Source of the DNA: a virus
Reading direction: 5' to 3' (one strand)
Length of the DNA stretch: 64,000 nucleotides
Virus record (IMG/VR): IMGVR_UViG_3300023242_000001
Coordinates: 1 to 64,000 of that record
Shown: positions 1-15,386 of the stretch, in pieces
Position numbering within the stretch: the first letter of the stretch is position 1
Layout: every line of letters begins with the position of its first letter
Position numbers and translations under genes: made by a program
The notes under the pieces: model-generated
Databases searched by the model: none
What the model saw: the letters and a program-made list of their open reading frames with translations, nothing else
What the model was told of the DNA's origin: nothing

Positions 1-81
<81 letters not shown>

Positions 82-190
82 AAGCCCCGTTCTAATACGT
101 GAGTTCTTAGCCTGCCAACCCTGCCGGGTTGGCAGCACTAAGGGTTTACCCTAATGGCACCCGATAGCGGGGCAAACTTCGATAGTGTCA

Positions 191-916
191 AGTGGCATTC
201 GTGCCATTGGACGCTAAGCGAGACGTTCTTTTAGGCTACAGACCCTCGCGGTATGTAGCCGATGCGATAGGTTAGCACTGTGCAGCGTGTTAGCCCGCTA
301 TTGTTAAGCCTCATACGTGAGGTTATACATGGTGGGTCGATAATGTGCCGCATACGCTGCTAACCGTCGGGTTTATATTTAGCGGGGAAAGTTTCCCATT
401 GATAACCGCTACCTTATGCCGAAAACACTCATTAGCAGTTGCAAGCGTTTGACGACCAAACACTAACCGTACTTATCATCCGTGGTATTAGGTTAGGACG
501 TTGACAAATGGGAGAACGTGGAGCAAAGCTAATACACCGACAATGTAACAGACAATTAATTGGCTATTGTCGGGAAGGGTTTCATATGTACCCAACGTAT
601 GCGTGAACCAGAATTACGTAAGTATTATGGATCTAGTGGCCGGGTAGATTAGGCCACACTATTTCCTTATCAGGTGTTTGATAGGGCGCTGCACTCACCG
701 CGACGGTGTGAGTGATGACAATTGCCTCAAGAATCGCAATGACGTATCCCGCGGGCGTCGAACAACCGCATAACGGCATGACTGGTGCCGCTTACCCCTG
801 ACCTATAGCCAGTCACGGTCAGGACGTTTCACGCCTGTAAAAACAGGCTTCGCTGGCGAGCAACGCAACCTGGTGGCCTCACCGCCACCAACCCCAGCTC
901 ACTGCAAGGCAGTGGG
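191..916 (+). ncRNA. Candidate large structured non-coding RNA or structured early leader
   Basis: No credible ORF, lower GC than the rest of the genome, about 15 consecutive or nested helices with G-U pairs and UUCG/UACG loops. Confidence 0.5.
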
Positions 917-960
917 CAAACCAAAGCCCCAAGGTTTCGGTTTGCCGTTTGGCATAGCCC

Positions 961-974
961 GGTGCGACTGCACC
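961..974 (+). promoter_or_regulatory. RAYT hairpin element, copy 1
   Basis: GGTGC-GACT-GCACC, GGAG 6 nt downstream, ATG 992. Confidence 0.8.
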
Positions 975-991
975 ATTTTTGGAGATTGACC

Positions 992-1240
992 ATGACCATG
1001 ACCATGACCAACCTTGAGCGCGACTACGCCTACTACACCGCTGCCTTTTCGGCCCAGCAGGCCGAACAGGACGCCTTCCACGCCGATTTCGGCCTGCCCC
1101 GCGTCGACCTTGCCTGGGACAGGGCTGTTGACCGGGAGGCTGTGCGCAGCCGGCCCTCCTGGGATGCCCAGAAGGCCGACTTCAAGGCCGACCTGGAGCG
1201 GCGGCAGTACGCTGCCGCCATTGGGCTGGCGCTGGCCTGA
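992..1240 (+). CDS. Hypothetical early protein
   Basis: ORF MTMTMTNLERD after GGAG. Confidence 0.7.
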   Translation: MTMTMTNLERDYAYYTAAFSAQQAEQDAFHADFGLPRVDLAWDRAVDREAVRSRPSWDAQKADFKADLERRQYAAAIGLALA

Positions 1241-1324
1241 CCCCTTGCCCCCGACAACGCCAACGTCTGGGGGCACACCATAGGCAATCCCACGCTTATG
1301 GTGTGCCGCTTTTGGTACTGACCC

Positions 1325-1338
1325 GGTGCGACTGCACC
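1325..1338 (+). promoter_or_regulatory. RAYT hairpin element, copy 2
   Basis: GGTGC-GACT-GCACC, GGAG 5 nt downstream, ATG 1354. Confidence 0.8.
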
Positions 1339-1353
1339 ATTTTGGAGTCCAAA

Positions 1354-1524
1354 ATGAAATACGTTTCCGCCTTCCTTATGCTCGTGGTCGGTCTGATTTG
1401 CATGACCGGGGCGTTTGTCTCCAGCGTGTTCCCGGCACCTGGCGACCCAGCTCCGATGCACCTAATGGTCGGGGCTGTCGTGGCCTTCATCATCGGGGCT
1501 GTGAGGGTCCGGCTGGAGGACTGA
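1354..1524 (+). CDS. Small membrane protein (2 TM)
   Basis: Two hydrophobic segments, GGAG RBS. Confidence 0.7.
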   Translation: MKYVSAFLMLVVGLICMTGAFVSSVFPAPGDPAPMHLMVGAVVAFIIGAVRVRLED

Positions 1525-1573
1525 ACCTGAACCCCGACAAGGTCTCTGACTGCGATCTTGACGCAGACGCAGA

Positions 1574-1876
1574 CCCCGACAACGTCACGGACAAGGGCCC
1601 CCATCAGAGACGTTGTCGGGGCTGGTGACGGGGCTGGTGACGTGCACGTGTGCCAAGAGTTTGGCGTTGTCGCCGGTGTGGTCGTTGACGGGGACCTGGA
1701 CCTGGACCCGGACCTGGACCTGGACCTGGACCCGGACCTGGACCTGGACAAGGTCGCTGACGTTGTCGGGGACGTTGTCGGGGACCTGGACCTGGACCTG
1801 GACCTGGACCTGGACCTGGACCTGGACCTGGACCTGGACCTGGACAAGGTCGCTGACGTTGTCGGGGACGTTGTCG
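1574..1876. repeat. Compound repeat: (GACCTG)n tracts plus CCCCGACAACGTC motifs in both orientations
   Basis: 9 hexamers 1693-1746, 10 hexamers 1783-1842, exact 34-bp repeat 1747-1780/1843-1876. Confidence 0.95.
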
Positions 1877-2016
1877 CAGAAAGTTTGAAAAGTCAGTGAG
1901 CGCTGACGTTGACGGGGGCAGGTCCGCGCCCATTTTCGGGGGTCTATTCCCACTGTGCATCGTGTCGGTGTGCAGTGGGAATCAACTTCGATTCGACCTC
2001 AATCTGGAGATAAAAC

Positions 2017-2409
2017 ATGAACACAAACAACACCACCATTACCCAAAGGTTCCACACCGTCTCAGAGGCGGTAGCCTGGCTTTACGAGGGGTCTGGCCTG
2101 TGGGTCGGTATCGGCGCTCAAGAGCAACTCGACCTGTACGACAGCTTGGAGGAAGCAGGGAGAGCCAGTTGGGGCGACCGCGTGGCAGTGGTGCGCGACA
2201 CGGTCGGGATCTGCCATGCCAGCTACGACAGGGGCCACACGCCCGAGTGGACGCTGAAGCAAACACCCACGGCGGTGTTGGCGGCAAAGTACAGCTGCAC
2301 CACCGAGGATGTGTGGTACCACTTCGATGGTAGATCCGAACAGTCTGGGGCAAAGTCACTGCGGATCTGGAGGGAAAACTGCGAGTGGGACGAAATGGCG
2401 GAAACCTAA
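2017..2409 (+). CDS. Hypothetical protein
   Basis: ORF with GGAG RBS, downstream of a 16-bp hairpin. Confidence 0.7.
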   Translation: MNTNNTTITQRFHTVSEAVAWLYEGSGLWVGIGAQEQLDLYDSLEEAGRASWGDRVAVVRDTVGICHASYDRGHTPEWTLKQTPTAVLAAKYSCTTEDVWYHFDGRSEQSGAKSLRIWRENCEWDEMAET

Positions 2410-2501
2410 CCCACCAGGGCCAAGTCTGGCCCGGTTTCAATTGCGTTCTCAACCCAGAGCGCATCTGAAACCCAAATTACGCACCAATCCGGTGCATAAC
2501 C

Positions 2502-2515
2502 GGCGCGACTGCGCC
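2502..2515 (+). promoter_or_regulatory. RAYT hairpin element, copy 3
   Basis: GGCGC-GACT-GCGCC before GGGAG, ATG 2536. Confidence 0.8.
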
Positions 2516-2535
2516 AATTTGAAGGGAGTCCACGC

Positions 2536-2742
2536 ATGGTTCACACCTGCACGATTGGGAAGATCAAGGTTTACCGGGGTTACGCACCCCTTGAGTGGCG
2601 CCTCGTGGCGCCGGACGGGGTCGCCACCACGGTCAGACACAGCGGCCAGATCGTGGACACGGCCCACCACCTGGAGTGGGTGTACGACTGCCGGATGCAG
2701 CAGGCGTACGGGATCCGCCAGCGTGCTGTGATCCGGCGGTGA
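2536..2742 (+). CDS. Hypothetical protein
   Basis: ORF with RBS. Confidence 0.65.
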   Translation: MVHTCTIGKIKVYRGYAPLEWRLVAPDGVATTVRHSGQIVDTAHHLEWVYDCRMQQAYGIRQRAVIRR

Positions 2743-2941
2743 CCACCTGACAACCGGGGTTAGTCCACCACGGGGCTAAGTTAGTGACCACTAACCAAGC
2801 GCCAAAACCCCCAAAAATTTGCGTGAAAAACGACCTTTTTCGTTGTTTTTCTGCGAATCCAGGCCATTCTGAGCCTGAAACCAGACCCCGACAACGTCGG
2901 GAACCATGCCCAAAGCCCGGCACACCCGAGCCAACCAACCC

Positions 2942-2955
2942 GCGCCAACTGGCGC
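2942..2955 (+). promoter_or_regulatory. RAYT hairpin element, copy 4
   Basis: GCGCC-AACT-GGCGC, 9 nt before ATG 2965, no GGAG. Confidence 0.7.
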
Positions 2956-2964
2956 CGCAAGACC

Positions 2965-3222
2965 ATGCTCTATTTAGTCAAGCGTCCGGACGATCCGAAC
3001 CATCCAACCCCGCTCTTCGTGCGCAGTGGGCGCGCCACCCCCAACCTGGTGAGTGCGATCAAGCGAGCGCACCGCCTGAAGGGGCGCGTGTACAGCTATG
3101 ACGGCGAAAGCCGTCTGGTTCAGGACTTCTGGGTGGCCCCAGAACTGAGCCCGATCAACCCCGGCAGCCGCGAGTACCGCCAGCAGCGGGCCATGGCAGC
3201 GCTGTTCGGCGTGCTGGCGTAA
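2965..3222 (+). CDS. Hypothetical protein
   Basis: ORF with phage-like codon usage. Confidence 0.65.
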   Translation: MLYLVKRPDDPNHPTPLFVRSGRATPNLVSAIKRAHRLKGRVYSYDGESRLVQDFWVAPELSPINPGSREYRQQRAMAALFGVLA

Positions 3223-3617
3223 ACCCAAGCCCGAGCCCGAGTCCGACTTGAGCGTCTGTATATCCTCGAAATCCAAGGGGCAGATGGGCAAGTTGGGTAA
3301 CCTTCTGGCCTAGCATGGTCTCAAGCTTTGAACTCTGCACTATGCAAAGTACAAGGAATTAGAAGAATACAAGAAAGGTATATTTATTAGACAGATTATA
3401 CAAAGGCTAGGGGATCTAGGCCGCATGAATCGCTTGCTCAAGCTTGAAGTTCTTGCGCAAGTTTGCTGCTTGTGCCCTAGACCCCCCTGCGGTTTTCCAG
3501 GTCGAGAAACAAATGAGGTACCCCGCAGGCCGCGTAAACACTCATTTCCCTGAAAATTGGCATCCTGGATGCTTTTCGAGCCAGGGGATAAACTGCACAA
3601 ATTTCGAGCCAAGCGCC

Positions 3618-4436
3618 ATGACCCTTCGCATCCACTGTTTACCGGGCTCAAACGAGCCCTACCCGGGCCCCAAAGCGGATCTTGTCGGGCGCGTCTACGG
3701 GCAGCTGACCGTTACCCGCCTGAAGGGCCGCAGCTCCAGCTCCGGGGCCGTGGTCTGGGAGACGACCTGCGACTGCGGTCAGCTCTCCGACGCCAGGGCC
3801 GGCGCCCTGACCTCGGGCAAGAAAACCAGCTGCGGGTGCACGCAATACCTGAAGCAGAGCCTGGCCAAGCGCAAGGCCCCTTCAGGGGGCCTCGTGGGCC
3901 ACACGTTTGGAAGGCTGACCGTGGTGGCCCGCCAAAGCTCCGTGAAAGCCGTCAACAAGGTGGTCTGGCAGTGCTTGTGCCAGTGTGGCCGAACCACGTA
4001 TGAGAGCCAAAGCACACTTGTGCCCGGCGGCGTGATCAGCTGTGGGTGCGAACCCCTGCCCGAGTCCAAAGCCCTGCCCAAACCCAAACCAGCGCCCAAG
4101 CCCACGTCCCTGACCATGCAGCAGGTCAATGCCTGGACCGAGATGTGGATGGCCTGCGCCGACCCGGCTGACCCCACCTACATGGTGGAACCCGGCTGGA
4201 CGCCATGCGCAGACCCCGACCCCGACCCAGCCAACCCGCGCCGCACATGCTGGCGCGACAGCGGCGACCAACTGCAAACCACGCGCCCCGACCTTGCCCC
4301 ACCCGCGCGGTGGCGAGACGTGCGTTTGTTTGCCGCTGACATGGGTGAGCCCGCAAGCGCGCTGCGCCGAATCGGCAGGCGCGACCAGAACCTGCCCCAC
4401 GGCCCCGGCAACTCATCCTGGGTAATCGGAAACTGA
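3618..4436 (+). CDS. HNH-endonuclease-related protein with two G-x-L-T-V...W-x-x-x-C-x-CG...SCGC domains and a degenerate nuclease motif
   Basis: DLVGRVYGQLTV..CDCG..SCGC and FGRLTV..WQCLCQCG..SCGC; start uncertain (3444-3618). Confidence 0.7.
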   Translation: MTLRIHCLPGSNEPYPGPKADLVGRVYGQLTVTRLKGRSSSSGAVVWETTCDCGQLSDARAGALTSGKKTSCGCTQYLKQSLAKRKAPSGGLVGHTFGRLTVVARQSSVKAVNKVVWQCLCQCGRTTYESQSTLVPGGVISCGCEPLPESKALPKPKPAPKPTSLTMQQVNAWTEMWMACADPADPTYMVEPGWTPCADPDPDPANPRRTCWRDSGDQLQTTRPDLAPPARWRDVRLFAADMGEPASALRRIGRRDQNLPHGPGNSSWVIGN

Positions 4437-4570
4437 CCCGCGGCCCACACAGGAAAGAGGCGTTGTCCTACAGACAAGCCCGAATACCTTCCGTCGGTTG
4501 ACCTAGACAAACGTAACAAACGTAAGAGGATGACAAGGTATGTAGGTGTTCCCCCTACATAATTCGGGCC

Positions 4571-4618
4571 GCACCAACTGGTGCATTAAGCAGAGTCCAA
4601 ACCCGCACCAACTGGTGC
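4571..4618 (+). promoter_or_regulatory. RAYT hairpin elements, copies 5-6 (tandem)
   Basis: GCACC-AACT-GGTGC at 4571-4584 and 4605-4618. Confidence 0.75.
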
Positions 4619-4927
4619 ACCCATCCCGAGTCCAACCCCACATGAAATCAGATACAAACTAATCACTGCCCCGCGTCAGCACGGGGACGTTTACCGGGAC
4701 CTGGAGGCCCTCCCCAGCGGGAGCGGCTATAGGCGCACATAGACCCCAGGACTCGGACTGTACGAAGCGTTGATACCGGCTGCGGCCGGGGCTTCGTGCT
4801 ACCTCCCAACCGGCGCCAGCCCGGCATGTACGCAAGCTGGCTTGACCGGAACCCCGACAACGTCACGACCAAGGCCCAAGACCCAAGACCTGGCCTTTGG
4901 CGTTGTCGGGTGACCTGCCCAAATTCC

Positions 4928-4963
4928 GTGCCAACTGGCACAAACCCGGCGCCAACTGGCGCC
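4928..4963 (+). promoter_or_regulatory. RAYT hairpin elements, copies 7-8 (tandem)
   Basis: GTGCC-AACT-GGCAC and GGCGCC-AACT-GGCGCC, GGAG 7 nt downstream, ATG 4981. Confidence 0.8.
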
Positions 4964-4980
4964 ACCAACTGGAGTTCAAC

Positions 4981-5352
4981 ATGAACGTCGCCGAGACCCT
5001 CGCCAAGCAAAAAGCCCTTGTACTGGATGCCCTCGTCAAGTTCCGGGATGACCCCCAAACTGTGAGAAGACCAGTGGGCATCTGCTCAAACCTCGCCTGG
5101 GAGCTGCACGGCGAGGTTGAACACGAGCAACGAACCAGGCTTGAGCGCTCGCTCTTCAAGGCTTGGCCGGAGTACTCCGGCCACCCGGATTACCCGGTGC
5201 CCTCCGAAGGCTGTGACCCGGCGAGGGCCTACAACAACACCGATGACCAGTGGGACCCCGACAGCGCCTATGGCGCTGCCCGCTGGCGCCTGCTCGCCTT
5301 CATGATTTCGGAGTTGACCCGTGACGCCCACACCGCAAAGGAACCAGCATGA
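4981..5352 (+). CDS. Hypothetical protein
   Basis: ORF MNVAETLAK after GGAG. Confidence 0.75.
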   Translation: MNVAETLAKQKALVLDALVKFRDDPQTVRRPVGICSNLAWELHGEVEHEQRTRLERSLFKAWPEYSGHPDYPVPSEGCDPARAYNNTDDQWDPDSAYGAARWRLLAFMISELTRDAHTAKEPA

Positions 5353-5760
5353 CCATCCTTGACAACCTGCGCCTGGCGCACACCGTGATCTCGGCAGTCC
5401 CCGATGCGGCGCTTGACCTGCGGCAGTACAAGACGGAGTGCGGCACGATTGCCTGCGTCGCCGGGCACTTGGCCGGGCACCCGCACTTTGCCCCATTCGT
5501 GAGGCTGGAACTGACCCACGACGACGGTGTCGGGAGTTACAGCCTGCGAACGCAGGACTACGTCGCCCTGAACTTCAACTTCGGGCCGGCCGCCTTTGGC
5601 TCGATGTTTGCCCAGCGCGGGTGGGGGCGCTTCGACAGGCGGCACCCCGACAGGGTCTACGACCACGAGGAGGGGGAGTACCACGTCCACCCCCCGCGTC
5701 AGCGACAAGGAACTCGCCCTGTGGCGCATCGAGCGCCAGATCGAGGAGGTGTTGAAGTGA
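5349..5760 (+). CDS. Hypothetical protein, apparently frameshifted at the C6 run 5690-5695
   Basis: CGTIACVAG motif; a natural-looking C-terminus VSDKELALWRIERQIEEVLK* lies in the shifted frame. Confidence 0.55.
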
Positions 5761-5915
5761 CCCACCTTGACCAACTGCTGGCCCAGCACGGCCAGGCCCG
5801 CAAGGCCTTCTACCAAGCACCGACACCGTCGCTGGGAGCGACCCTGAAGCGCCTTGAGGGCCAAATCAAATACGAGCGGCGCGCCGCTCGCAAACCCGCC
5901 CCGACTGGGGCATGA
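5757..5915 (+). CDS. Small hypothetical protein
   Basis: GAGGAGG RBS, GTG start overlapping TGA. Confidence 0.55.
   Translation: MTHLDQLLAQHGQARKAFYQAPTPSLGATLKRLEGQIKYERRAARKPAPTGA
5898..5911 (+). promoter_or_regulatory. RAYT hairpin element, copy 9
   Basis: GCCCC-GACT-GGGGC, GGAG 7 nt downstream, GTG 5929. Confidence 0.85.
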
Positions 5916-5928
5916 ACTGGAGTTCAAA

Positions 5929-6312
5929 GTGAGTCACCCAATACCCAACAAATCTGAGGGCATCAAATGCCCCGTGCACCTCAGCGACAAGAACTACCTG
6001 TGCGGGGCAGACGGCGGGCTGATCTGCAGGCTCGTGGAGGCCACGGACGCCGAGATGCGCGAGATCGTCGAAGCGTTGAACACGCCCCCGGTATCTGTCG
6101 AGCTCAACACCGCCGTGTTGAAGCGCACCCTCGGCTCGATGCTGCGTACAAACGACATCAAGCCCAAAAGCGCGACCGGTCGCAAGATGATCCTCGCGTT
6201 CTGGTATGGCGCGATCACCCAGTCGGGGCGAGAAGCGCCGGCCGGCGTGGCGATATGCCTGTTGATAGGGCGCCACGAAGAGCTTGTCGATATGGGGGCG
6301 GGCGATGTCTGA
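5929..6312 (+). CDS. Hypothetical protein
   Basis: GTG start after the element RBS. Confidence 0.65.
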   Translation: MSHPIPNKSEGIKCPVHLSDKNYLCGADGGLICRLVEATDAEMREIVEALNTPPVSVELNTAVLKRTLGSMLRTNDIKPKSATGRKMILAFWYGAITQSGREAPAGVAICLLIGRHEELVDMGAGDV

Positions 6313-6937
6313 ACTCACACGACTTAACGGCGAGCAACTCAGGGAAATCGCCCTGGTGCTGGAGAACGACGGGGCCTTTTACAAGTCCTTTCCCTGCGCC
6401 ATCAACACGGCAAGTTCCAAGCGCGACGCTATCAACGACGCGTGCACCCGACTTCATCGTCGGGACGAATTGGGCGTGCCGCTCCCCGACAAGTACAGCC
6501 GCGAAATCCTGAGGCGCTACTTCACCGCCCGCTGGGACCTGAGCAAAGTCGAAGGCGACGACACCTTTCAGCATCGCGCCTGCAACAACTTCTGGGAGGG
6601 CGAGCCCACCCTCGCCGAGACTGAACTCAGGGACCACCTGAGTGACGTCAAAACCCTCGTCGACTCGATCGACAAACTCTGTTCCCTGCCTTTCACCACC
6701 ACCAAGGAAATCACCATGAACGCACACATCGAAATCACCACCGTCACCCTCGTCAACGGCGCCGACGTCAGCAAGATGACGGACGCAACCATCTACGGCT
6801 TGATCGCCTCCGAGGAGGGCAAGATCAAGGAACTGGACGCGATCCAGAACAAGCCCAAGCGCCTGCTTGCCGAGATTGTGAAACGCCAGGGGGGCATCGC
6901 CGCGCTGGTGAATTACCTCGACAGCAAGGAGGTCTGA
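6305..6937 (+). CDS. Hypothetical protein (possible internal start at 6716)
   Basis: ORF; internal AAGGA..ATG. Confidence 0.7.
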   Translation: MSELTRLNGEQLREIALVLENDGAFYKSFPCAINTASSKRDAINDACTRLHRRDELGVPLPDKYSREILRRYFTARWDLSKVEGDDTFQHRACNNFWEGEPTLAETELRDHLSDVKTLVDSIDKLCSLPFTTTKEITMNAHIEITTVTLVNGADVSKMTDATIYGLIASEEGKIKELDAIQNKPKRLLAEIVKRQGGIAALVNYLDSKEV

Positions 6938-6992
6938 GATGCTCACGCACCAGGCGATGTTCGACATCACTTGGTGCGCTGACCCACAACCC

Positions 6993-7006
6993 GCCCCGAC
7001 TGGGGC
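6993..7006 (+). promoter_or_regulatory. RAYT hairpin element, copy 10
   Basis: GCCCC-GACT-GGGGC; lies in a 36-bp exact repeat of 5893-5928. Confidence 0.85.
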
Positions 7007-7025
7007 ATGAACTGGAGTTCAAACC

Positions 7026-7259
7026 ATGACCCACTGCTACCTGCGAACGGGGGGCGACGCGCTCGAAGACGCCGTCGCCTACCTCACCATCGGCGCCGCC
7101 GTGCGCGACTTCGAGGCCACCGCGCGAGAGCTTGACGGGTACGGCCAGCGCATCGATGCCAGCGTCCACATCGCCGCCAACTTCGAGGAGCTGGGCGAGT
7201 ACCCCGACATCGTCCTGAGCCTGGGCCCGCGCGGCGGGCTGCGCAAGGAGGCGGCATGA
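7026..7259 (+). CDS. Hypothetical protein
   Basis: ORF ending GPRGGLRKEAA. Confidence 0.7.
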   Translation: MTHCYLRTGGDALEDAVAYLTIGAAVRDFEATARELDGYGQRIDASVHIAANFEELGEYPDIVLSLGPRGGLRKEAA

Positions 7260-7323
7260 ACTGCACCGTGGCCAAACGAAACCAAGACGCCGTCGACTTG
7301 ATGCGTCGCACAAGGAGTACCAA

Positions 7324-7554
7324 ATGATGAAATCGAGAAGCAACCTGACCGCGTCGCTTGCAGCGCTGGTGGCACTCTCCGCGCTGGCCAGCGCGGTGTC
7401 AGACAGCGCAGGCTATGTGCCGCCCAAACGCCAAAGCAAGCGCAAGCCAACTGTGCGCGGGCAGATCCTGGAGCAGGGTCTGGAGGTGCAGGAGTGGAAC
7501 GCAGCGGTCCAGGCCAAGCGTGACGCCAAGCTGGCGCGCAAGGGGCGGGCATGA
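7324..7554 (+). CDS. Hypothetical protein
   Basis: AAGGAG RBS. Confidence 0.6.
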   Translation: MMKSRSNLTASLAALVALSALASAVSDSAGYVPPKRQSKRKPTVRGQILEQGLEVQEWNAAVQAKRDAKLARKGRA

Positions 7555-7907
7555 CTGAGCGCGAACGCTTCGAGGCGTGGGCGCTGGCCCACGGCGAGAC
7601 CGGCGACTACAAGAACACCCGCGCAGTCCTTGTCTGGATCGGCTGGCAGGCCGCGATGGCAAGCGGGGTACACCGCCCGGACCTTGCCAACGCGCCGACA
7701 GGCCAAATCCGCCTGAACACCGACAAGACCGTGGTGGTCGACAAGGGCTACCACTACCGAAAGATCGACGCCACCACCCAGCGCGGCGGCAAGCTCCAGC
7801 TTGTGAACCGCTACGCCGGCGTGGCAGCTTACGGCAACTACAACCCGGCATACGACTTCTGGACGCATTACGCGCCGCTGCCGACGTTTGACCCCAAGGA
7901 GGCCTGA
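7551..7907 (+). CDS. Hypothetical protein
   Basis: ERERFEAWA..WIGWQAA N-terminus typical of phage accessory proteins. Confidence 0.7.
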   Translation: MTERERFEAWALAHGETGDYKNTRAVLVWIGWQAAMASGVHRPDLANAPTGQIRLNTDKTVVVDKGYHYRKIDATTQRGGKLQLVNRYAGVAAYGNYNPAYDFWTHYAPLPTFDPKEA

Positions 7908-7908
7908 G

Positions 7909-8409
7909 ATGAAAACCATCAAAGTATCAGAAGCCATACCCACCCAGCTTGATTGGCTGGTGGCGAAATGTGAGGGTTACGTTTGGGCACCTGTAGTTCG
8001 CCCTTCCAGATGCTTTGACTGCCGCCATTACGAAGAACGCCAAGGGCGAGATGAGGCTACCCAATACTGCAACCACCCTGACATGAACTTTAGAGATGGC
8101 AGTGACGGAGACAACTGGAGTTCTGACTACGAATGCCACAAGCAGTGCCCGTACAAAACAGAAGTGCAGACCCCTGTTTACCCACCTTACTCAACCGACT
8201 GGGCCCAAGGCGGGCCAATCATTGAGCGGGAATTGTTGGCGCCAGAACCTCTATTGGACACGAACTGCTCCCTAATAAAGTGGCGTTGTCGTAACTGGAA
8301 AGGTGACGGCTCGGACTACTACGGCCCCACTTACCTGATCGCAGCCATGCGCTGCTACGTTACTAGCAAGATGGGCGAGACCGTCGAAGTACCAGAGGAA
8401 TTGACATGA
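7909..8409 (+). CDS. NinX/DUF2591-like protein with a Cys-rich insertion
   Basis: LDWLVAKCEG, YSTDWAQGGPIIE, IAAMRCYVTSKMG. Confidence 0.75.
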   Translation: MKTIKVSEAIPTQLDWLVAKCEGYVWAPVVRPSRCFDCRHYEERQGRDEATQYCNHPDMNFRDGSDGDNWSSDYECHKQCPYKTEVQTPVYPPYSTDWAQGGPIIERELLAPEPLLDTNCSLIKWRCRNWKGDGSDYYGPTYLIAAMRCYVTSKMGETVEVPEELT

Positions 8410-8627
8410 CAACACTCACAGAGCGCCAGCAACTGGCGGTCAAGAACTACATCGGGGGCGAGTACAGCTACGCCACCACCACCCAGCAGGTGGAGGCCAT
8501 CAGTGACACGCTCCTGCATTTCGTTGTCCGAGAGGCGGCCGACGCTCACGACGATGCTGAGTTTGTCGGCATGCTGAACCAGGCGATCGAGCAGCTGCGC
8601 AGCTTGGTGGAGGGCTTGGATAACTGA
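8406..8627 (+). CDS. Hypothetical protein
   Basis: ORF with GAGG RBS. Confidence 0.6.
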   Translation: MTTLTERQQLAVKNYIGGEYSYATTTQQVEAISDTLLHFVVREAADAHDDAEFVGMLNQAIEQLRSLVEGLDN

Positions 8628-8650
8628 CCCGCGCCACCGGCGCACAACCC

Positions 8651-8664
8651 GCCCCAACTGGGGC
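8651..8664 (+). promoter_or_regulatory. RAYT hairpin element, copy 11
   Basis: GCCCC-AACT-GGGGC, GGAG 7 nt downstream, ATG 8682. Confidence 0.85.
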
Positions 8665-8681
8665 ACCAACCGGAGTCCAAC

Positions 8682-9317
8682 ATGTACAAAGTCAAAGAGC
8701 TTGCCAGCTCGAATCCCGACATCGTCGCTGTCATTTACCAGGACGACGACGCGGAGCCGCCCGAGAGCGACATCGTCAAGATCGCCTACCGAGGCAGCGC
8801 ACGAACCACGCTGGGCAGCCAGCCCTGCACCGACGACGAGCTCGACCAGATCGGGCAAGACATCGCCGACGGCGTGCTCGTCGGCGTGCCGGTGTGGGCC
8901 TACGTCCACAGTGGATCCACCATCAGCACCGGCACCAAGCTGCGCGGCGATACCGAGGCGCGACTGCGCGAGAACCCCTACCACTGCCGCTGGGACAGCT
9001 GGCGCAGCGGCTGGGCCTACATGACAGCCAAGGACGCCCTCAAAGAGTGGGGCAACAAACGCCTGTCGGCGCAGCAGCGCGACAAGGCCCACCACTACAT
9101 CGACGGCGTGGTTGACGAGTTCGCCATGTACCTGCGCGGCGAGGTCTACGGATACACCATCGATCGCATCGAGCGTGACGAGGCCGGAGACGAGATCGGG
9201 CGCGACGAGCTGGAATCGTGCTGGGGCTTCTTCGGGGAGGAGTACGTCACCGAGGAGGCGCTGGATGCGCTTCGGATTGTGTGCAAAGAGGAAGACAAGC
9301 TGGTGGCGGGCCTGTGA
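8682..9317 (+). CDS. Conserved phage hypothetical protein
   Basis: YVHSG, CRWDS, GEVYGY, SCWGFFG motifs. Confidence 0.75.
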   Translation: MYKVKELASSNPDIVAVIYQDDDAEPPESDIVKIAYRGSARTTLGSQPCTDDELDQIGQDIADGVLVGVPVWAYVHSGSTISTGTKLRGDTEARLRENPYHCRWDSWRSGWAYMTAKDALKEWGNKRLSAQQRDKAHHYIDGVVDEFAMYLRGEVYGYTIDRIERDEAGDEIGRDELESCWGFFGEEYVTEEALDALRIVCKEEDKLVAGL

Positions 9318-9607
9318 CCAAAGCCACCATCACCCAACACAAAGGCGGCGGCACGTCTTTCACCGGGCGCGCCGCAGTCAACCTCTACGCCGCTGTCGTG
9401 CTGCTGAGCGGCATCAGGTTCTACCTGAAAACAGGTATGAAGGTGAGCAGCGGCTACACCCCGACCAACATGCTGGCAGCCGCCACAGGCCACACCGGAA
9501 AGACCTACAAGCGAGGCCAACTTGCCCAGGCTGCGCTGGACTTGGACGCGTTTATTCAAGAGCAGAAGACCAACGGCTCGGTGAGCTTCGAAGGAGATGA
9601 GACATGA
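9314..9607 (+). CDS. Hypothetical protein
   Basis: GTG start overlapping the upstream stop; TGKTYKRGQ. Confidence 0.65.
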   Translation: MTKATITQHKGGGTSFTGRAAVNLYAAVVLLSGIRFYLKTGMKVSSGYTPTNMLAAATGHTGKTYKRGQLAQAALDLDAFIQEQKTNGSVSFEGDET

Positions 9608-9966
9608 CCAAGGCATCAAGCAAGGTCGAACCCACCACAGAAGAGCAGGCCAAAAAAGCCGAGTGGTTGGAGCGATTAAATGACCCCTACAACGAAAAGT
9701 TCTTCTTCAAGGTCCCGGGTACGGACCTGCGGGGCAAAGAAAAGCCGGGGCAGTCTGTTTCAGTGCGGATCGCATGTTCGATTCGATATAACGGCGGCAC
9801 TGTGATCAAGGGCAAGTGGTACAGCGGCTACGACGTGGCACCCCCAGTGGTCCCGCAGGGCTACGAACTCATATCAGACTACACGGGCATGCAGCTGAAC
9901 TCGAGCCCGCCACACGTCACCATGAACCTGGTCCAGAAGGGGACGAGACATGACCACCCACGCTGA
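9604..9966 (+). CDS. Hypothetical protein
   Basis: AAGGAG RBS, coupled ORF. Confidence 0.65.
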   Translation: MTKASSKVEPTTEEQAKKAEWLERLNDPYNEKFFFKVPGTDLRGKEKPGQSVSVRIACSIRYNGGTVIKGKWYSGYDVAPPVVPQGYELISDYTGMQLNSSPPHVTMNLVQKGTRHDHPR

Positions 9967-10159
9967 GCGCGGCGGCTACTTGCACCGGCTAGCCGCCACG
10001 ATCCCCGACAACGCCACGATCCCCGACAACGCCGAGTTCTTGGGGTATGCCAGGTTGGTGCGGCCCAGCGGCCACTACGCCGACGCCCCGACCTGCACCC
10101 TGTACCACCTGCCGGGCACCGGCTACATCGCGGCGCATGCGCGCCCTCACAAGGATTGA
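9950..10159 (+). CDS. Hypothetical protein with an 18-bp in-frame tandem duplication
   Basis: ATIPDN x2. Confidence 0.55.
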   Translation: MTTHAERGGYLHRLAATIPDNATIPDNAEFLGYARLVRPSGHYADAPTCTLYHLPGTGYIAAHARPHKD

Positions 10160-10160
10160 C

Positions 10161-10385
10161 ATGACCCACTTCTACATCGACGACTACGGCCTGACGCCCG
10201 AACAGCTTGCCAGCAAGCACGCCCCGGACGGCGACGACGAGCACCCCGGCTTCCCGATCGACGTGTGGCGCCTGCGCGTCCACGACGGCGACACCCTGCA
10301 AGGCTACTGGAACTGGGTCAGGCACCAGCTCCAGCTTGAGGAAGACGAACTCGACCGCGACAACCCATACAACCAAGGAGAGTGA
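10161..10385 (+). CDS. Hypothetical protein
   Basis: EHPGF..W..DTLQGYWNWV. Confidence 0.7.
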   Translation: MTHFYIDDYGLTPEQLASKHAPDGDDEHPGFPIDVWRLRVHDGDTLQGYWNWVRHQLQLEEDELDRDNPYNQGE

Positions 10386-10386
10386 C

Positions 10387-10656
10387 ATGCACCTCGAACA
10401 CCTTGCACGGACCGTGCTGGCCAAGCGCGCCACAAACTGGCTGCCCCACCACATCGACGACATGCGCCGCGAGCTGACCGAGATTGACGAGAACCGCGAG
10501 GCCTACGACGGCCACATTGCCCAGGCTCGCGAGCAAGCCCCCGACGGGCTTGAGATCGACGAGAAGCCTTACCTCGACGTGGGCGAGGGCGGCGTCTGGG
10601 TCTCGGCCTGGATCTGGGTTCCCACACCAACCAACGAAGAACTGGACGAGGCATGA
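10387..10656 (+). CDS. Hypothetical protein
   Basis: AAGGAG RBS; LEIDE..GVWVSAWIWV. Confidence 0.7.
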   Translation: MHLEHLARTVLAKRATNWLPHHIDDMRRELTEIDENREAYDGHIAQAREQAPDGLEIDEKPYLDVGEGGVWVSAWIWVPTPTNEELDEA

Positions 10657-10862
10657 AAACCATCTACGTCTGCGGCCACTGCGGCAGCCCGCGCGTCTAC
10701 GTCGACGCCTACAAGAACCTGAACGACCTCGACGAGGTGTTGACCTACGACCACACCGTGTGCTTCGACTGCACCTGCACCGACTGGACTGAGGAGGTTG
10801 AGGTGCCCTACGACTTCAACATGGAGTACGGGCGCTACAAAAAGCCCGCCAAGGAGACCTGA
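10653..10862 (+). CDS. Small zinc-ribbon protein
   Basis: CGHCGS...CFDC. Confidence 0.65.
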   Translation: MKTIYVCGHCGSPRVYVDAYKNLNDLDEVLTYDHTVCFDCTCTDWTEEVEVPYDFNMEYGRYKKPAKET

Positions 10863-10863
10863 A

Positions 10864-11355
10864 TTGCCCACCAACAAAAAACCCCGCAAGGCCTACCGGC
10901 CCAAGCGCAACCTGCAAGACCCGGTCGGGCAGGTGCTGCGCAACATCACCCCGCTCTCCCAGGAGACCGAGTACCTGCTCACCATGCAGATGAAGAACAG
11001 CATGGCGATGGCGCGGCTTCTGCGCGGCGTCGCCGACCGGGCTGACATGCTGAACATCTTCGCCATGTCCAACGTGGTCGAAGCCCTGCACCAAGCCGGC
11101 ATCGGCGGCGAGTACCTGGGGGTGTCCGCCGCCGGCAAAGACGCCATCAAGCAGATCGGCGCGCGGGCCAAGATCATCGGGCGCTACGTCCCAACAGGGC
11201 CAGAGATCGCGGCGCTGCGCTTGCTGATGGAGCTGCACGACGCCCAGGCTGAAGTCATCACCGAGGGCAACATGGACCAGGTTGGCAACTACATCCGAGA
11301 GCAGATCGCTCTGGGCAAAGTCACCACTGTGCCGCTGGCACGAGAAACCACCTGA
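10864..11355 (+). CDS. Hypothetical protein
   Basis: TTG start after AAGGAG; KKPRKAYRPK. Confidence 0.7.
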   Translation: MPTNKKPRKAYRPKRNLQDPVGQVLRNITPLSQETEYLLTMQMKNSMAMARLLRGVADRADMLNIFAMSNVVEALHQAGIGGEYLGVSAAGKDAIKQIGARAKIIGRYVPTGPEIAALRLLMELHDAQAEVITEGNMDQVGNYIREQIALGKVTTVPLARETT

Positions 11356-11381
11356 CCCCGCTGCAACCGCAGCAACCACCC

Positions 11382-11395
11382 GGCGCGACTGCGCC
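11382..11395 (+). promoter_or_regulatory. RAYT hairpin element, copy 12
   Basis: GGCGC-GACT-GCGCC, GGAG 7 nt downstream, ATG 11413. Confidence 0.85.
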
Positions 11396-11412
11396 ACATC
11401 TAGGAGTTCCAC

Positions 11413-11811
11413 ATGGACGACACCGCATTTCACAAAGCCCTGGGCGAGAGCCGAAACGGCACCGACGCCTTCCACTTCAACCCGCTGTACCGCTGGATGA
11501 AGTACAGCGACGGCGTCAAGGAGGTGGCCGAGTCAGGCTGCTACTGGCTGCTGGATACGCTTGGGCTGACCATCCGACCCGCGCTGCGAGGCCTGAAGCA
11601 GACCTACGTCATGGCCACCGTCACGGTCTCGGTCAAGGCCAGCAAGGCCAAGATCACCGCCACCACCGGCGACGAGGACCCGCCGTTCTGGACCGAGAAC
11701 GTGAGCTACACCGACATGCCGGACGGCGACTGGAGCATGCTGCTGACCTATGAGGCCACCACCCAGGGCGGGGTCGGCGATGGCCGCTTGATCCTGGTCA
11801 CGGAGTACTGA
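11413..11811 (+). CDS. Conserved hypothetical protein (DUF6876-like)
   Basis: YSDGV..AE.GCYWLLD..YTDMP..LILVTEY. Confidence 0.65.
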   Translation: MDDTAFHKALGESRNGTDAFHFNPLYRWMKYSDGVKEVAESGCYWLLDTLGLTIRPALRGLKQTYVMATVTVSVKASKAKITATTGDEDPPFWTENVSYTDMPDGDWSMLLTYEATTQGGVGDGRLILVTEY

Positions 11812-11814
11812 GCC

Positions 11815-12096
11815 ATGAACGTCACCGTTGTGAGGATGGCTCAGGCCAGGCCCAGGGTCAGCACCACGCCACTGATTCGCGTCCTGCGCTACCGCTACAC
11901 CGCTGGGGGCTGCATGGACTTCGATTTCCACATGCTCTGCGAAGTGGGCCAGCCCTACCAACCTGCGGCACGCGTGCAGGTTGCTGAAATCCTCGCCAAG
12001 AACCCAGGCTGGGAGGTCCAGACGATTGAGATTGACCGCAAGCCCTGGCTGGTCGACGCACTGGGCAAGGTCCAGCCATCAGGAGCACTCAAATGA
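11815..12096 (+). CDS. Hypothetical protein
   Basis: ORF in operon. Confidence 0.55.
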   Translation: MNVTVVRMAQARPRVSTTPLIRVLRYRYTAGGCMDFDFHMLCEVGQPYQPAARVQVAEILAKNPGWEVQTIEIDRKPWLVDALGKVQPSGALK

Positions 12097-12431
12097 CAAC
12101 GCCGAACACTTACACCCGCGCCCAGTACATGGAGGACAGCAGAGCGGACGGCCCCGGCGCACACCGCAGGTACTACGGCCAGTTCGTGAACGCAAGGACC
12201 ATAGCTACCGTGGTGGCTGCCCTGGGCCCGAAGGCGCTGCTGGGCTCGGTGGACCCCCACTTCAACGACATTGCGCTGTCGCGGTGGTACGACCTCGTAC
12301 CCCGTCTCCCTGGCTCCAGGGGGTTTTCGAAGGCCGGCGACTTCTACACCCCGATCGGTGGGGTTTGTCTGGCCAAAGAGGCGGCCTGCCAGTGGGTCGA
12401 GATGCAGCGACCCAGCACCCTCGTTGAGTAA
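12093..12431 (+). CDS. Hypothetical protein
   Basis: HRRYYGQFV, DPHFNDIAL. Confidence 0.7.
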   Translation: MTTPNTYTRAQYMEDSRADGPGAHRRYYGQFVNARTIATVVAALGPKALLGSVDPHFNDIALSRWYDLVPRLPGSRGFSKAGDFYTPIGGVCLAKEAACQWVEMQRPSTLVE

Positions 12432-12463
12432 ATAACCGACCCCGCGCATTCCGCGCAAACCCC

Positions 12464-12477
12464 GCCTCGATTGAGGC
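12464..12477 (+). promoter_or_regulatory. RAYT hairpin element, copy 13
   Basis: GCCTC-GATT-GAGGC, GGAG 7 nt downstream, ATG 12495. Confidence 0.85.
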
Positions 12478-12494
12478 AATTTAAGGAGTCCCAA

Positions 12495-12929
12495 ATGGGA
12501 ACACGTTCCATCACGTCCGTCATCGAGAACGGCACCATCCTGTGCACCATGTACCGTCAGTTCGACGGCTACCCCAGCGTCCACGGGGCGGATCTGCACA
12601 AGTTCCTCGCTGCTCTGACGCTGGTCAACGGCATCAGCAGTGCGGACAACCGCCGCATCGCCAACGGCGCCGGCTGCCTCGCTGCGCAGATGGTGCACCA
12701 CTTCAAGCAGACCTCAACAGATGCCCGCACATCGATGGCGGGCAACGTCTACATCACCGCGCCGCGCCTGAAGCTCGACAGCGAGGACTACGGCTACACC
12801 GTGTCGGTCGACGACAAGCTTCGCACCAGGATCAAGTGCTATGTGGTGGGGCACGGCAACGTCGACGACAGCATCTTCTGCGGAACCGTGGCCGAGTTCG
12901 GCGAGTTCTGCGCGAAGGATGTCGCATGA
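12495..12929 (+). CDS. Conserved phage hypothetical protein
   Basis: MGTRS..YRQFDGYP..NGAGCLAAQ. Confidence 0.75.
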   Translation: MGTRSITSVIENGTILCTMYRQFDGYPSVHGADLHKFLAALTLVNGISSADNRRIANGAGCLAAQMVHHFKQTSTDARTSMAGNVYITAPRLKLDSEDYGYTVSVDDKLRTRIKCYVVGHGNVDDSIFCGTVAEFGEFCAKDVA

Positions 12930-13141
12930 GCGCCATCACCTACAAGCCCGAGGTCCGCGTCAACGGCAGCTTCCACAGCAACTCACTGGTGTTCGCCACC
13001 CGCGAGGAGGCCGAGCAGTCGGCACGCGAGTTGATGGGCCGCTGGCTGCTGGTCACCGACTACCGTGCGGTCGAGTCGACCGACCCCGTCAACTACGCCC
13101 TCGTCGACGGCGATCTGCGTGCTGTGGAGGTGGCAGCATGA
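12926..13141 (+). CDS. Hypothetical protein
   Basis: YKPEV..NSLVFATREEA..DPVNY. Confidence 0.7.
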   Translation: MSAITYKPEVRVNGSFHSNSLVFATREEAEQSARELMGRWLLVTDYRAVESTDPVNYALVDGDLRAVEVAA

Positions 13142-13329
13142 GATTCGCCCAGACCTACTGCAGCCAGTGTGGCCAAGAGCAGGGCCCGGGTGACAACGGC
13201 GTAAGCCACTGCCGCGACCACCTCAATGCTCACGTCCACCCGGTGTTCCGAGACATCTTGTCGGGGTTCTTCACACCGCAGCCGACCCGCGCGCCGGACG
13301 AGCGCCCACAGCCAGGAGACATGACATGA
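13138..13329 (+). CDS. Small Cys/His protein
   Basis: GGAGG RBS; CSQCG..SHCRDH. Confidence 0.65.
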   Translation: MRFAQTYCSQCGQEQGPGDNGVSHCRDHLNAHVHPVFRDILSGFFTPQPTRAPDERPQPGDMT

Positions 13330-13517
13330 GCTTCTCACCCCTGCCCTTTGATTACTCCCGGTGCCAGCCGCAGCCGGGGCCAGTGGCCAACTGCCGGGCC
13401 TGCGCCAGGTGGGCTGACCACCCCAAACAAGTGTGGGGTGAGCGGACCCCGTTCGAGAGCCTGGACCCGACCGGCCCACATTGCGACTTCACCCCCGCAG
13501 ACACCAAGCACCGCTAA
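13326..13517 (+). CDS. Small Cys-rich protein
   Basis: DYSRC..CRACARW. Confidence 0.6.
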   Translation: MSFSPLPFDYSRCQPQPGPVANCRACARWADHPKQVWGERTPFESLDPTGPHCDFTPADTKHR

Positions 13518-13524
13518 CCCACCC

Positions 13525-13538
13525 GCCCCGACTGGGGC
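13525..13538 (+). promoter_or_regulatory. RAYT hairpin element, copy 14
   Basis: GCCCC-GACT-GGGGC, GGAG 7 nt downstream, GTG 13556. Confidence 0.85.
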
Positions 13539-13555
13539 ATTAACCGGAGACCAAA

Positions 13556-13879
13556 GTGATCAACCTCACCGACTTCACCGAGCGCATCGTCACGCTCAGC
13601 ACAGCCCACATCCCCAAGCACACCGCTGCCGCGCTCGGCAAGTACCGCGAAGACTGCGTGGTGGCCGAGTTGTGGGGCCACATCCACTACGAACCCTGGG
13701 GCGACTTCGGCTGGATCATCTGGGCCAGTTCAGAGTGTTGCGAGGACGCCCTGGCACCCCACCCCGAACTGGCAGCCCTGATGGCCATGTGCGCCGAGCG
13801 GCGCATCCAGTGGCTGCGACTGGACTGCGACGCCCCGCCCCACCCTGAGTTGCCGACTTTTGAATGGGAGCCGACATGA
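13556..13879 (+). CDS. DUF5983-like protein
   Basis: LSTAHI..GW..WLRLDCDA..LPTFEW. Confidence 0.65.
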   Translation: MINLTDFTERIVTLSTAHIPKHTAAALGKYREDCVVAELWGHIHYEPWGDFGWIIWASSECCEDALAPHPELAALMAMCAERRIQWLRLDCDAPPHPELPTFEWEPT

Positions 13880-14256
13880 ACTACATCAAGACCGCCGACG
13901 GCGAAATCTCCACCTTCGACATCTGCCAAGCCTACATGCAGCTGGAGTCCGACTTCAACGTCGACGGCTTGCTGCGTGAGCGCCCCAGCAACCAGCGCCG
14001 GCGCGAGTCGATCGGCTGCCAGCTGGCCCGCCTGAAGTTCAACCCCGGCATGCGCTGGGTTGACATTGTGAGCTTCGACAACGACGCCGACGACGAGGAC
14101 GAAGACCGAGATGTGCGCTGGATCTACCTCAACAAGTTGATGGAGTGGGGGCTGCCCGCCGACGAGGGCCTGCTTGCCGCCATCAATAGGCTGTTCGTCC
14201 GCGACTGGCTCCTGGCCAACTTTCCCGCCTACGCCTGCACCGAGGTGGCGGCATGA
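13876..14256 (+). CDS. Hypothetical protein
   Basis: FDICQAY..LESDFNVDG.LRERPSNQRR. Confidence 0.7.
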   Translation: MNYIKTADGEISTFDICQAYMQLESDFNVDGLLRERPSNQRRRESIGCQLARLKFNPGMRWVDIVSFDNDADDEDEDRDVRWIYLNKLMEWGLPADEGLLAAINRLFVRDWLLANFPAYACTEVAA

Positions 14257-14489
14257 AGATGAATTTTTCCAGGGTCACGCGGCCGGGCCGAGCGGGAATA
14301 TCCATGAGCCTCGGAGAGCTTGACGAGCATTTCAAGCTGAAGCCGGGCACCTGCTTTGGCAGCATCGTCAGGCCGGCCGAGGGGCTCGCCCCACCCAAGG
14401 CATCCAACTTGAACGCTTCGTCCGGCAAGAACCTGTACCGCGTCGGCGAGTTCCGCCAATATCTTCAACTTCGAGGAAAACTGCAATGA
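14253..14489 (+). CDS. Hypothetical protein, possibly DNA-binding
   Basis: Coupled ORF, GAGG RBS. Confidence 0.55.
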   Translation: MKMNFSRVTRPGRAGISMSLGELDEHFKLKPGTCFGSIVRPAEGLAPPKASNLNASSGKNLYRVGEFRQYLQLRGKLQ

Positions 14490-14994: not shown

Positions 14995-15073
14995 GCTGCG
15001 GAAATCCTGGGCTTGAGGGGGCGCTGATCAGCTCCAAGAAGTCCACCCGACCACCTACATCTGAAAGCTGAAC

Positions 15074-15319: not shown

Positions 15320-15354
15320 CCCAGACTAACCCCAGGCCGAAAGGCCATCAACCC

Positions 15355-15368
15355 GCCTCGATTGAGGC
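15355..15368 (+). promoter_or_regulatory. RAYT hairpin element, copy 15
   Basis: GCCTC-GATT-GAGGC, GGAG 7 nt downstream, ATG 15387. Confidence 0.85.
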
Positions 15369-15386
15369 AACTTTCGGAGTCCAACT

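Follow-up and report, generated by a model that had tools for sequence, protein, structure and literature searches.

A gene-free, hairpin-rich spacer behind the first early gene of a temperate siphophage as a possible untranslated leader of the early transcription unit

The virus genome in IMG/VR record IMGVR_UViG_3300023242_000001 (76,295 bp) carries one long gene-free stretch, which lies between its first early gene, here called p232, and the remaining early genes. We analyzed the first 64 kb of this record, referred to as the window, and all positions are window positions unless the genome or another record is named. The gene-free span runs from 96 to about 960 (roughly 860 nt) and is wider than the interval 191-916 that an earlier note, made by reading the letters, had described as free of open reading frames (ORFs). 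Our leading, although still tentative, reading is that 96 to about 914 is a transcribed but untranslated, cis-acting structured spacer, an intercistronic leader within the early plus-strand unit, and that it is at once a long 3' untranslated region of p232 and the leader of the downstream early cassettes. RNA processing or stability, shielding from Rho and control of termination are the likely roles of such a spacer. Folding energies reported below are predictions throughout, and promoter and terminator calls are consensus matches.

Over positions 1-773, none of the six frames contains a stop-free run of 70 codons or more. Between the p232 stop (95) and the module that opens the first downstream early gene (961-994) the longest ORF has 48 aa, with the exception of a minus-strand ORF of 60 aa (829-1011) that overlaps this downstream module. 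No second ORF-free stretch was found in the 76-kb genome, either at a length of at least 200 nt with a cut-off of 60 codons or at a length of at least 250-400 nt with a cut-off of 70 codons. In all six frames across the stretch, every one of the three stop codons is found two or more times. Since every frame holds all three, no single stop-codon reassignment opens a frame across it, and stop-codon recoding was rejected. Comparison of the six-frame translation with the proteins of related phages by tblastn revealed no pseudogene remnants, and no tRNA or tmRNA was found within the stretch.

The base composition of the stretch is distinct as well. Its GC content is 0.43-0.55, compared to 0.63 for the genome, and the genome-wide minimum (0.437) is reached at 351-650, which confirms the lower GC content relative to coding regions that had been noticed before. 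G exceeds C on the plus strand across most of 157-780; the median C/G of coding plus strand is 1.09. The window 391-468 is C-rich, G-poor and unpaired (C/G ratio 1.9), and in its sequence it looks like a Rho-loading (rut) site. Such a composition would be expected if the untranslated RNA kept Rho from loading everywhere but at 391-468.

Hairpins are strongly enriched in this region. We counted 15 perfect hairpins (stem of at least 6 bp, loop of 3-30 nt) where 4.9 ± 2.1 are expected, and none of 500 dinucleotide shuffles reached this number. When every 865-nt window of the genome was normalized to its own shuffles (genome mean z 0.5, standard deviation 1.3), the two windows over the stretch ranked first and second of 174, with z-scores of 6.1 and 4.9. 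The minimum free energy (MFE) of the whole region was also better than that of dinucleotide shuffles, the comparison by which the earlier note had wanted its proposal to be checked: z was -6.2 on the plus strand and -3.6 on the minus strand (100 shuffles), and runs with 20 shuffles gave -5.6 and -3.9, respectively. A tRNA taken as positive control for the MFE z-score was not an outlier against its shuffles, and a GC-regressed ranking was therefore not relied upon.

This structure is distributed unevenly. The first part, 96-375, folds at -127 kcal/mol with a z of -6.82 on the plus strand (0 of 200 shuffles as good) and -4.55 on the minus strand. It contains four hairpins, given here, like all following elements, for the plus strand. 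Hairpin H1 (99-149) has an outer stem (99-110/138-149) and an inner, perfect 10-bp stem (112-121/126-135) that closes a UGCC loop; the pair probabilities (P) are 0.85 and 1.00, and it folds well on both strands. H2 (183-216) carries a UUCG loop closed by an A-U pair (z -3.1, P 0.97-1.00). H3 (234-260) consists of 7 + 3 bp and reaches a z of -3.7, with none of 200 shuffles as good (P 0.96), and H4 (262-371) is a long irregular hairpin of 46 bp, including 10 G·U pairs, with a UACG apical loop (P 0.96-0.99). The second part is a low-GC core (376-630), which overlaps the GC minimum of the genome and contains the C-rich segment. Pair confidence is low here and the core folds like shuffled sequence (z -0.79, equalled by 46 of 200 shuffles). 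The third part, 631-960, is a string of short, near-perfect hairpins with a z of -3.2 on the plus and -2.7 on the minus strand. Three of them lie at 636-657, 665-686 and 692-714 (P 0.89-0.99), and folding and pair probabilities place others at 774-790, 797-823, 833-848, 871-890 and 900-914. Because the z-scores are similar on both strands, the hairpins of 631-960 give no information about the strand.

All 15 helices and pairings that the earlier note had listed are present and fully paired. The dense pairing it described applies to 96-375 and, in the form of a hairpin string, to 631-960, but not to the core. In the partition function all helices with a P of at least 0.7 are local hairpins, with the one exception of a 4-bp long-range pairing of 177-180 with 981-984 (P 0.70), and only 40% of the nucleotides have a confident partner. 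Long-range complementary 8-mers were observed 4 times against 6.1 expected and 7-mers 24 times against 22.1. By these counts the two pairings proposed as pseudoknots or alternatives, 349-356 with 596-603 and 394-400 with 507-513, are at chance level. With local helices around an unstructured, A+T-rich middle, the stretch is a row of hairpins that fold independently and lacks the architecture of an ornate, multi-domain RNA. Confident pairing that is only local is typical of leaders or processing elements and not of a globular RNA.

Information about the strand comes from H4, as most of the short hairpins are perfect Watson-Crick inverted repeats. H4 folds at -51.2 kcal/mol on the plus strand (z -4.4 to -4.7) and at -32.3 kcal/mol on the minus strand (z -1.8), and its covariance model scores 130 bits and 14 bits, respectively. 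Background windows of 113 nt have a mean z of -0.39 (standard deviation 1.17) and 0.7% of them are at -4 or below, which places H4 in the extreme tail without making it unique. When the 5' arm was compared to the reverse complement of the 3' arm, 9-10 of the transition differences were of the G·U type, compared to one of the A·C type. A DNA palindrome that decays neutrally should accumulate both in equal numbers, and the binomial p for the observed excess is about 0.006-0.011, uncorrected. We consider the G·U bias toward a plus-strand RNA suggestive, not decisive. The plus strand outfolds the minus strand after control for composition, both in the whole region and in 96-375, by the z-scores given above. 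A plus-strand RNA had been proposed earlier on the grounds of G-T pairs and UNCG loops. The asymmetry is real and stems mainly from H4, while those grounds hold less well: there are only three G·U pairs among the helices then listed, and the two UNCG loops are closed by A-U instead of C-G. With its 46 bp and small internal loops, H4 also offers the roughly 20 bp or more of near-continuous double-stranded RNA that RNase III cleavage calls for, and is a predicted site for this enzyme.

The position of the stretch relative to promoters is consistent with its transcription from the plus strand. Only two sigma70-like sites with at least 10 of 12 consensus positions exist in the whole genome. Both match at 11 of 12 positions, and as a divergent pair they precede the stretch by about 0.85-1.0 kb (L003:13374-13542). 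The minus-strand promoter (TTGACA-N17-TACAAT) is located at genome 75373-75401; the plus-strand promoter, GTGACA-N18-TATAAT, occupies genome 75512-75541 and precedes p232 by about 65 nt. The pair may be the main switch region of the phage. On both strands of window 1-20000 we found no sigma70-like site, compared to 2.8 ± 1.6 expected. Plus-strand transcription of the early genes must therefore cross p232 and the spacer, barring unrecognized promoter types. The sole strong promoters upstream, the better folding of the plus strand and the ratio of 10 G·U to 1 A·C in H4 all fit the earlier suggestion of a plus-strand early-operon leader. The minus-strand promoter, for its part, drives a gene for a 135-aa protein with a faint HTH_23 hint (E 0.047), which heads the HNH and terminase genes.

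The earlier note had also pointed to a weak boxA-like string. This string, CGTTCTTTT, is indeed present at 224-232 on the plus strand, as read from the sequence, and lies 1 nt ahead of H3. Measured against a nut-type site, with boxA (CGCTCTTA / GCTCTTTA) followed by boxB, the resemblance, with two mismatches to the 8-nt core GCTCTTTA, is too slight for a match, and the hairpin 234-260 follows after 1 nt. The location is that of a nut-type site, which lies downstream of an early promoter and ahead of terminators that have to be read through: the sole strong plus-strand promoter lies upstream, and the downstream cassettes each open with a short hairpin and a U-run.

The first of these cassettes begins with a 5' module at 915-994 on the plus strand. 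It comprises a hairpin at 915-946, followed by GUUUGG, a hairpin with a RAYT loop and a U-run at 961-974, GGAG at 981-984 and the ATG at 992. The arrangement is repeated before the next gene, where a terminator-like hairpin (1272-1307) is followed by a RAYT hairpin (1325-1338), and we therefore assign the last 80 nt or so to the cassette module and not to the spacer. The mirrored hairpins at 915-946 and 1272-1307 suggest a boundary of a plus-strand unit. RAYT modules, with a 5-bp stem and an R-A-Y-T loop, occur in 18 copies on the plus strand between 961 and 20654. Most are preceded by ACCC, then come GGAG, TYCAA and the start codon, and in 13 copies a Shine-Dalgarno sequence lies no more than 16 nt away. 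On the minus strand there is one copy, and the four complete relatives have 1-3 per strand, which is chance level. The RAYT module is specific to the present phage and co-occurs with p232 and the long spacer.

Several other features were considered and rejected. A cluster of intrinsic terminators is not supported, since three plus-strand sites were flagged in 1-1400 against 1.4 expected, and only 270-295 is inside the spacer. This site is a sub-stem of H4 with a weak tail, and the other two are the hairpins at 961-974 and 1272-1307. The hairpin 112-135 behind the p232 stop has no U-tract. Integron attC-like core sites at the base of H4 were dismissed by inspection, because orientation and consensus do not fit. 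Collinear direct repeats at 92/310, 165/380 and 268/489 (spacing 215-221 nt, window 92-530) would correspond to an ancient tandem duplication of about 218 nt. This duplication is not significant, with a local z of at most 1.6 and a global test equalled by 29 of 300 shuffles.

The gene upstream of the spacer, p232, starts at genome 75,608 (L003:13609, with L003:13609-14296 covering the part ahead of the junction) on the plus strand; its 3' end occupies 1-95, with the TAA stop at 93-95. It encodes an orphan all-helical protein with an Ala/Pro-rich C-terminal tail that derives from a CTG/CTGCCC microsatellite of variable length. The protein has 232 aa in the database copy and is longer here (232-285 aa) owing to a longer repeat. 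The contig exists in versions of 76,262 and 76,295 bp and was circularized inside the repeat, so that the repeat number is uncertain. The direct terminal repeat (DTR) annotated in the record is a 21-bp overlap within this microsatellite and nothing more, and the genome is therefore a circular assembly with its junction inside p232. No Pfam or PHROG match was obtained for the protein. Its family has three members. Of 5.8 billion clustered proteins only P0002 and P0003 are homologous to it, each encoded on a contig of about 1-2 kb. When viral and metagenome contigs were scanned with p232, or with an alignment of all three family members, nothing matched, and the gene is absent from the four complete relatives. 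The AlphaFold model is poor (pLDDT 53), and the ESM Atlas returned unnamed viral clusters only (0.81). With a GC content of about 0.50 in p232, gene and spacer together make up some 1.8 kb of low-GC sequence, an island in the 0.63-GC genome.

The phage is a temperate siphophage. It encodes a tyrosine integrase (41922-43058, minus strand) adjoining a tRNA-Cys (43913-43989), a tape-measure protein of 2062 aa and a large terminase subunit (TerL) of the lambda gpA type. The portal, HNH and small-terminase genes are located on the minus strand just upstream of the circular junction. All early and replication genes downstream of the spacer are on the plus strand, as are the ligase, helicase, primase, PolA-type polymerase and SbcCD-like genes. 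The nearest GenBank phages, Vibrio SHOU24-like, Pseudomonas Lana and Caulobacter Seuss, share about 25-28% identity in TerL and polymerase, and metagenomes contain a large family with TerL 55-67% identical. Relatives with 45-47% identical TerL were found in prophage-like loci (L082, L083) of a Variovorax paradoxus assembly and of the metagenome-assembled genome of an uncultured proteobacterium, and two related records are classed as proviruses by IMG/VR. Going by these loci and this classing, the group is probably temperate and has Proteobacteria, probably Burkholderiales, as hosts. Two further peculiarities of the early region were observed. The second-lowest GC dip of the genome (0.47, at 3200-3500) lies immediately upstream of and extends into a gene for a 330-aa HNH-endonuclease-like protein (3444-4436), and probably marks a further mobile insertion. 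Positions 1692-1845 hold a (GGACCT)n hexanucleotide microsatellite (about 26 copies), whose repeat ORFs are long in several frames on both strands.

Searches for homologues of the spacer revealed none, neither for the covariation analysis that had been suggested earlier nor as a known RNA family. Rfam cmscan of the whole window at gathering thresholds gave no matches. Over 1-1400 at E ≤ 10, no family matched within 105-991; low-complexity matches lay in the microsatellite at 15-104 and weak ones at 1149-1220 in the downstream gene. For the large structured RNAs in Rfam (such as GOLLD, ROOL, OLE, HEARO and group I/II introns), the stretch shows neither a model match nor the long-range architecture. 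We obtained no match by blastn against 50,697 phage records, by blastn and nhmmer against 56 TerL-related IMG/VR loci, or in the complete records of five relatives. Among 401 Burkholderiales genomes and three prophage-bearing genomes only short matches at chance level appeared. Exact 20-24-mers of two hairpins had no match in metagenome and viral contig collections, and the single-sequence covariance model of H4 recovered only itself over 1.09 Mb of related DNA. In the four complete relatives (81-86 kb) the longest ORF-free stretch is 289 nt. By these sequence comparisons, the spacer, p232 and the RAYT cassettes with their hairpin and ribosome-binding site (RBS) are lineage-specific additions that the relatives lack.

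A stretch in a distant relative, L032 (TerL 40% identical), deserves consideration, although it is not similar in sequence. At the late/early divergence this genome has an ORF-poor, low-GC (0.48) stretch of about 1 kb (approximately 5810-6940). Strong folding (z -6.6 / -7.6) was seen for 502 nt of it (5907-6408), a piece bracketed by two perfect TTATCCACA DnaA boxes, at 5901-5909 on the minus and 6395-6403 on the plus strand. In the wider stretch there are further near-consensus DnaA boxes and an A/T-rich core, together with an 83-nt hairpin that has A- and U-runs on its flanks. From these motifs it looks like a DNA-level element of the origin type, and it is a candidate phage origin or DnaA-binding region.

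If the spacer of the present phage acts in cis on the early transcript, the following course of events can be envisaged. From the sequence signals, host RNA polymerase would start at the plus-strand promoter (genome 75512-75541), cross p232, pass the U-tract-less hairpin 112-135 and enter the spacer. The four stable hairpins of 96-375, including H4, would fold co-transcriptionally. They might then act in cis to stabilize the 3' end of the p232 mRNA, to offer an RNase III-type site at which processing would separate p232 from the genes downstream, or to do both. The C-rich, unstructured segment 391-468 would be the one place for Rho loading, and thereby a candidate point of regulated termination like lambda tR1 between cro and cII. 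Elsewhere, the G over C composition and the dense hairpins could shield the untranslated RNA from Rho until the ribosome-binding module at 961-994 is reached.

Several points weigh against this cis-acting spacer. MFE differences between the strands of similar size are found elsewhere in the genome, and the G·U excess of H4 becomes marginal once its G+T-rich composition is allowed for (estimated p about 0.06-0.08). Most of the hairpins, being perfect Watson-Crick inverted repeats, fold on either strand and are equally usable as DNA-level sites. As no homologue was found in the searches made, there is neither covariation nor a sign of purifying selection. The relatives run their early operons without such a spacer, which is consequently not a required part of the design, and the comparably placed stretch of L032 carries DnaA boxes that point to a DNA-level role there.

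A function in DNA is indeed one of the alternatives that have to be weighed. The stretch would in that case most likely be a replication origin, with 376-630 as the site of unwinding, the flanking inverted repeats as sites of protein binding or extrusion, and transcription from the upstream promoter as the activating event. The GC minimum of the whole genome at 351-650 has the character of an A+T-rich unwinding element, the hairpins fold on both strands for the most part, the phage has genes for a primase, a helicase and a PolA-type polymerase of its own, and the analogue in L032 combines strong folding with DnaA boxes. The cumulative GC-skew extreme is also located at the stretch, but it coincides with the switch in gene orientation and is therefore uninformative. 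No iterons, over-represented 6-8-mers or excess of direct repeats were detected in the region, and no DnaA box was found there even with one mismatch allowed. The four closer relatives lack the region, and duplex DNA would leave the G·U-dependent, plus-strand-only pairing of H4 unexplained. We regard an origin as rather unlikely on this balance. An inert stretch of acquired DNA appears similarly improbable to us. According to this explanation, the spacer is the flank of a low-GC moron, p232, whose insertion separated the early promoter from the early genes, and the hairpins of the spacer are leftovers, for instance of old terminators, or were passively selected against polarity over an untranslated gap. 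The low-GC island formed by gene and spacer, the absence of p232, spacer and RAYT modules from the relatives, the lack of any spacer homologue in the searches made and a middle third that resembles shuffled sequence all agree with such an acquisition. Neutral decay, however, should erase so much structure, and here the hairpin excess tops the genome and 96-375 reaches a z of -6.8. Former genes have left no detectable trace, and an 860-nt dead insert in the essential early transcription path should soon be lost from a packaging-limited genome.

Readings in which the RNA acts on its own seem more doubtful still. Besides a leader, the earlier note had put forward a new large RNA, with GOLLD and ROOL as precedents. 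A free-standing, trans-acting structured non-coding RNA comparable in kind to these, or several small ones, might possibly work with p232 or the RAYT hairpins. The size, the lack of ORFs, the strong folding and the plus-strand bias would suit such an RNA, as would the presence alongside it of p232 and the RAYT modules, two systems unique to the present phage. We nevertheless find it improbable. Rfam has no match even at E ≤ 10, long-range or multi-branch helices are unsupported, and the tertiary pairings claimed earlier are no more than chance would give. Structure is missing from one third of the stretch, which also lacks a promoter of its own and, with no homologues found, offers no covariation. 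Equally slim, in our estimate, are the prospects of a variant in which the 96-375 domain or the whole of 96-914 is a stand-alone structured RNA that works with p232 and controls the 18 RAYT hairpin-RBS cassettes, for example by RNA-protein antitermination or by mRNA processing; if true, it would constitute a lineage-specific, RNA-based module of early-gene control without a described counterpart. The least probable explanation is an injection-stop site like iss of phage T5, or a packaging or genome-end site, hence large, untranslated, palindrome-rich DNA that acts in entry or packaging. The non-coding region of T5 is similar in its inverted repeats (bioRxiv 10.1101/866236), and the present region likewise comes after one promoter-proximal gene. 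It is, however, without the direct repeats and DnaA boxes that define the T5 region, and unlike iss it is not conserved among relatives. As for a genome end, the TerL of the phage is of the lambda gpA type and an HNH gene adjoins the terminase genes. In HK97-like phages with this arrangement, cos is situated between the HNH and small-terminase genes, a place that is 1.5-2.5 kb away from the stretch here. Since the DTR is only the microsatellite overlap, the record does not define the ends.

If the spacer is transcribed and acts in cis, as we tentatively favor, a temperate phage of Proteobacteria would possess a structured intercistronic leader of unusual length, linked to phage-specific hairpin-RBS cassettes. 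This leader would also provide a handle on early-gene timing in an uncultured phage group that uses host polymerase only. The practical value is limited, as a singleton without relatives allows no comparative validation and the phage is not in culture.

Comparison with known systems helps to place the spacer. GOLLD and ROOL are large, ornate RNAs of phages and prophages for which cryo-EM structures exist (PMC12286853). The present stretch shares with them hundreds of ORF-free nucleotides in a phage genome and a strongly negative folding z, but it is a singleton with an unstructured middle third, without a covariance-model match and without a conserved multi-stem architecture. The iss region of T5 is a non-coding region of 1662 bp with 97 stop codons, rich in inverted repeats and palindromes, and is defined by ordered direct repeats, palindromes and paired DnaA boxes that are conserved across relatives (bioRxiv 10.1101/866236). 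Both are very long, untranslated, stop-rich inverted-repeat regions near the pre-early or early genes of a siphophage. In contrast to iss, the present stretch has no direct repeats, DnaA boxes or conservation, and the plus-strand G·U pairing of H4 points to a single-stranded nucleic acid. The L032 stretch resembles it in its place near the packaging or late-early boundary, its low GC content and its very strong folding. It differs by lying directly in the divergent gap, by its pair of perfect DnaA boxes and by an A/T-rich core that has a long stem resembling a bidirectional terminator, whereas the present stretch follows an extra gene and is without those features.

Further parallels are found in early transcripts. 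Stable local hairpins between the cistrons of a long early transcript recall the RNase III sites and intercistronic stabilizing hairpins of T7 early mRNA, and hairpins flank each of the downstream cassettes here as well. In T7, each site is one hairpin of about 50-60 nt in the gap between neighboring genes instead of an 860-nt gene-free block, and cleavage is only predicted for the present phage. The order of elements in lambda is cro, nutR with boxA and boxB, the Rho-dependent terminator tR1 and cII. Compared to lambda, the present stretch is about three times longer and shares no sequence similarity, its boxA match is weak, and no N-like protein or boxB was identified. The layout, on the other hand, is alike. 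In both phages a structured untranslated RNA comes right after the first early gene behind a host-type promoter, and the order is hairpins first, next a C-rich segment without structure, and finally the other early genes. Like the RNase III-sensitive hairpin of the lambda N leader, the long double-stranded H4 would be available as a substrate for a double-strand-specific RNase.

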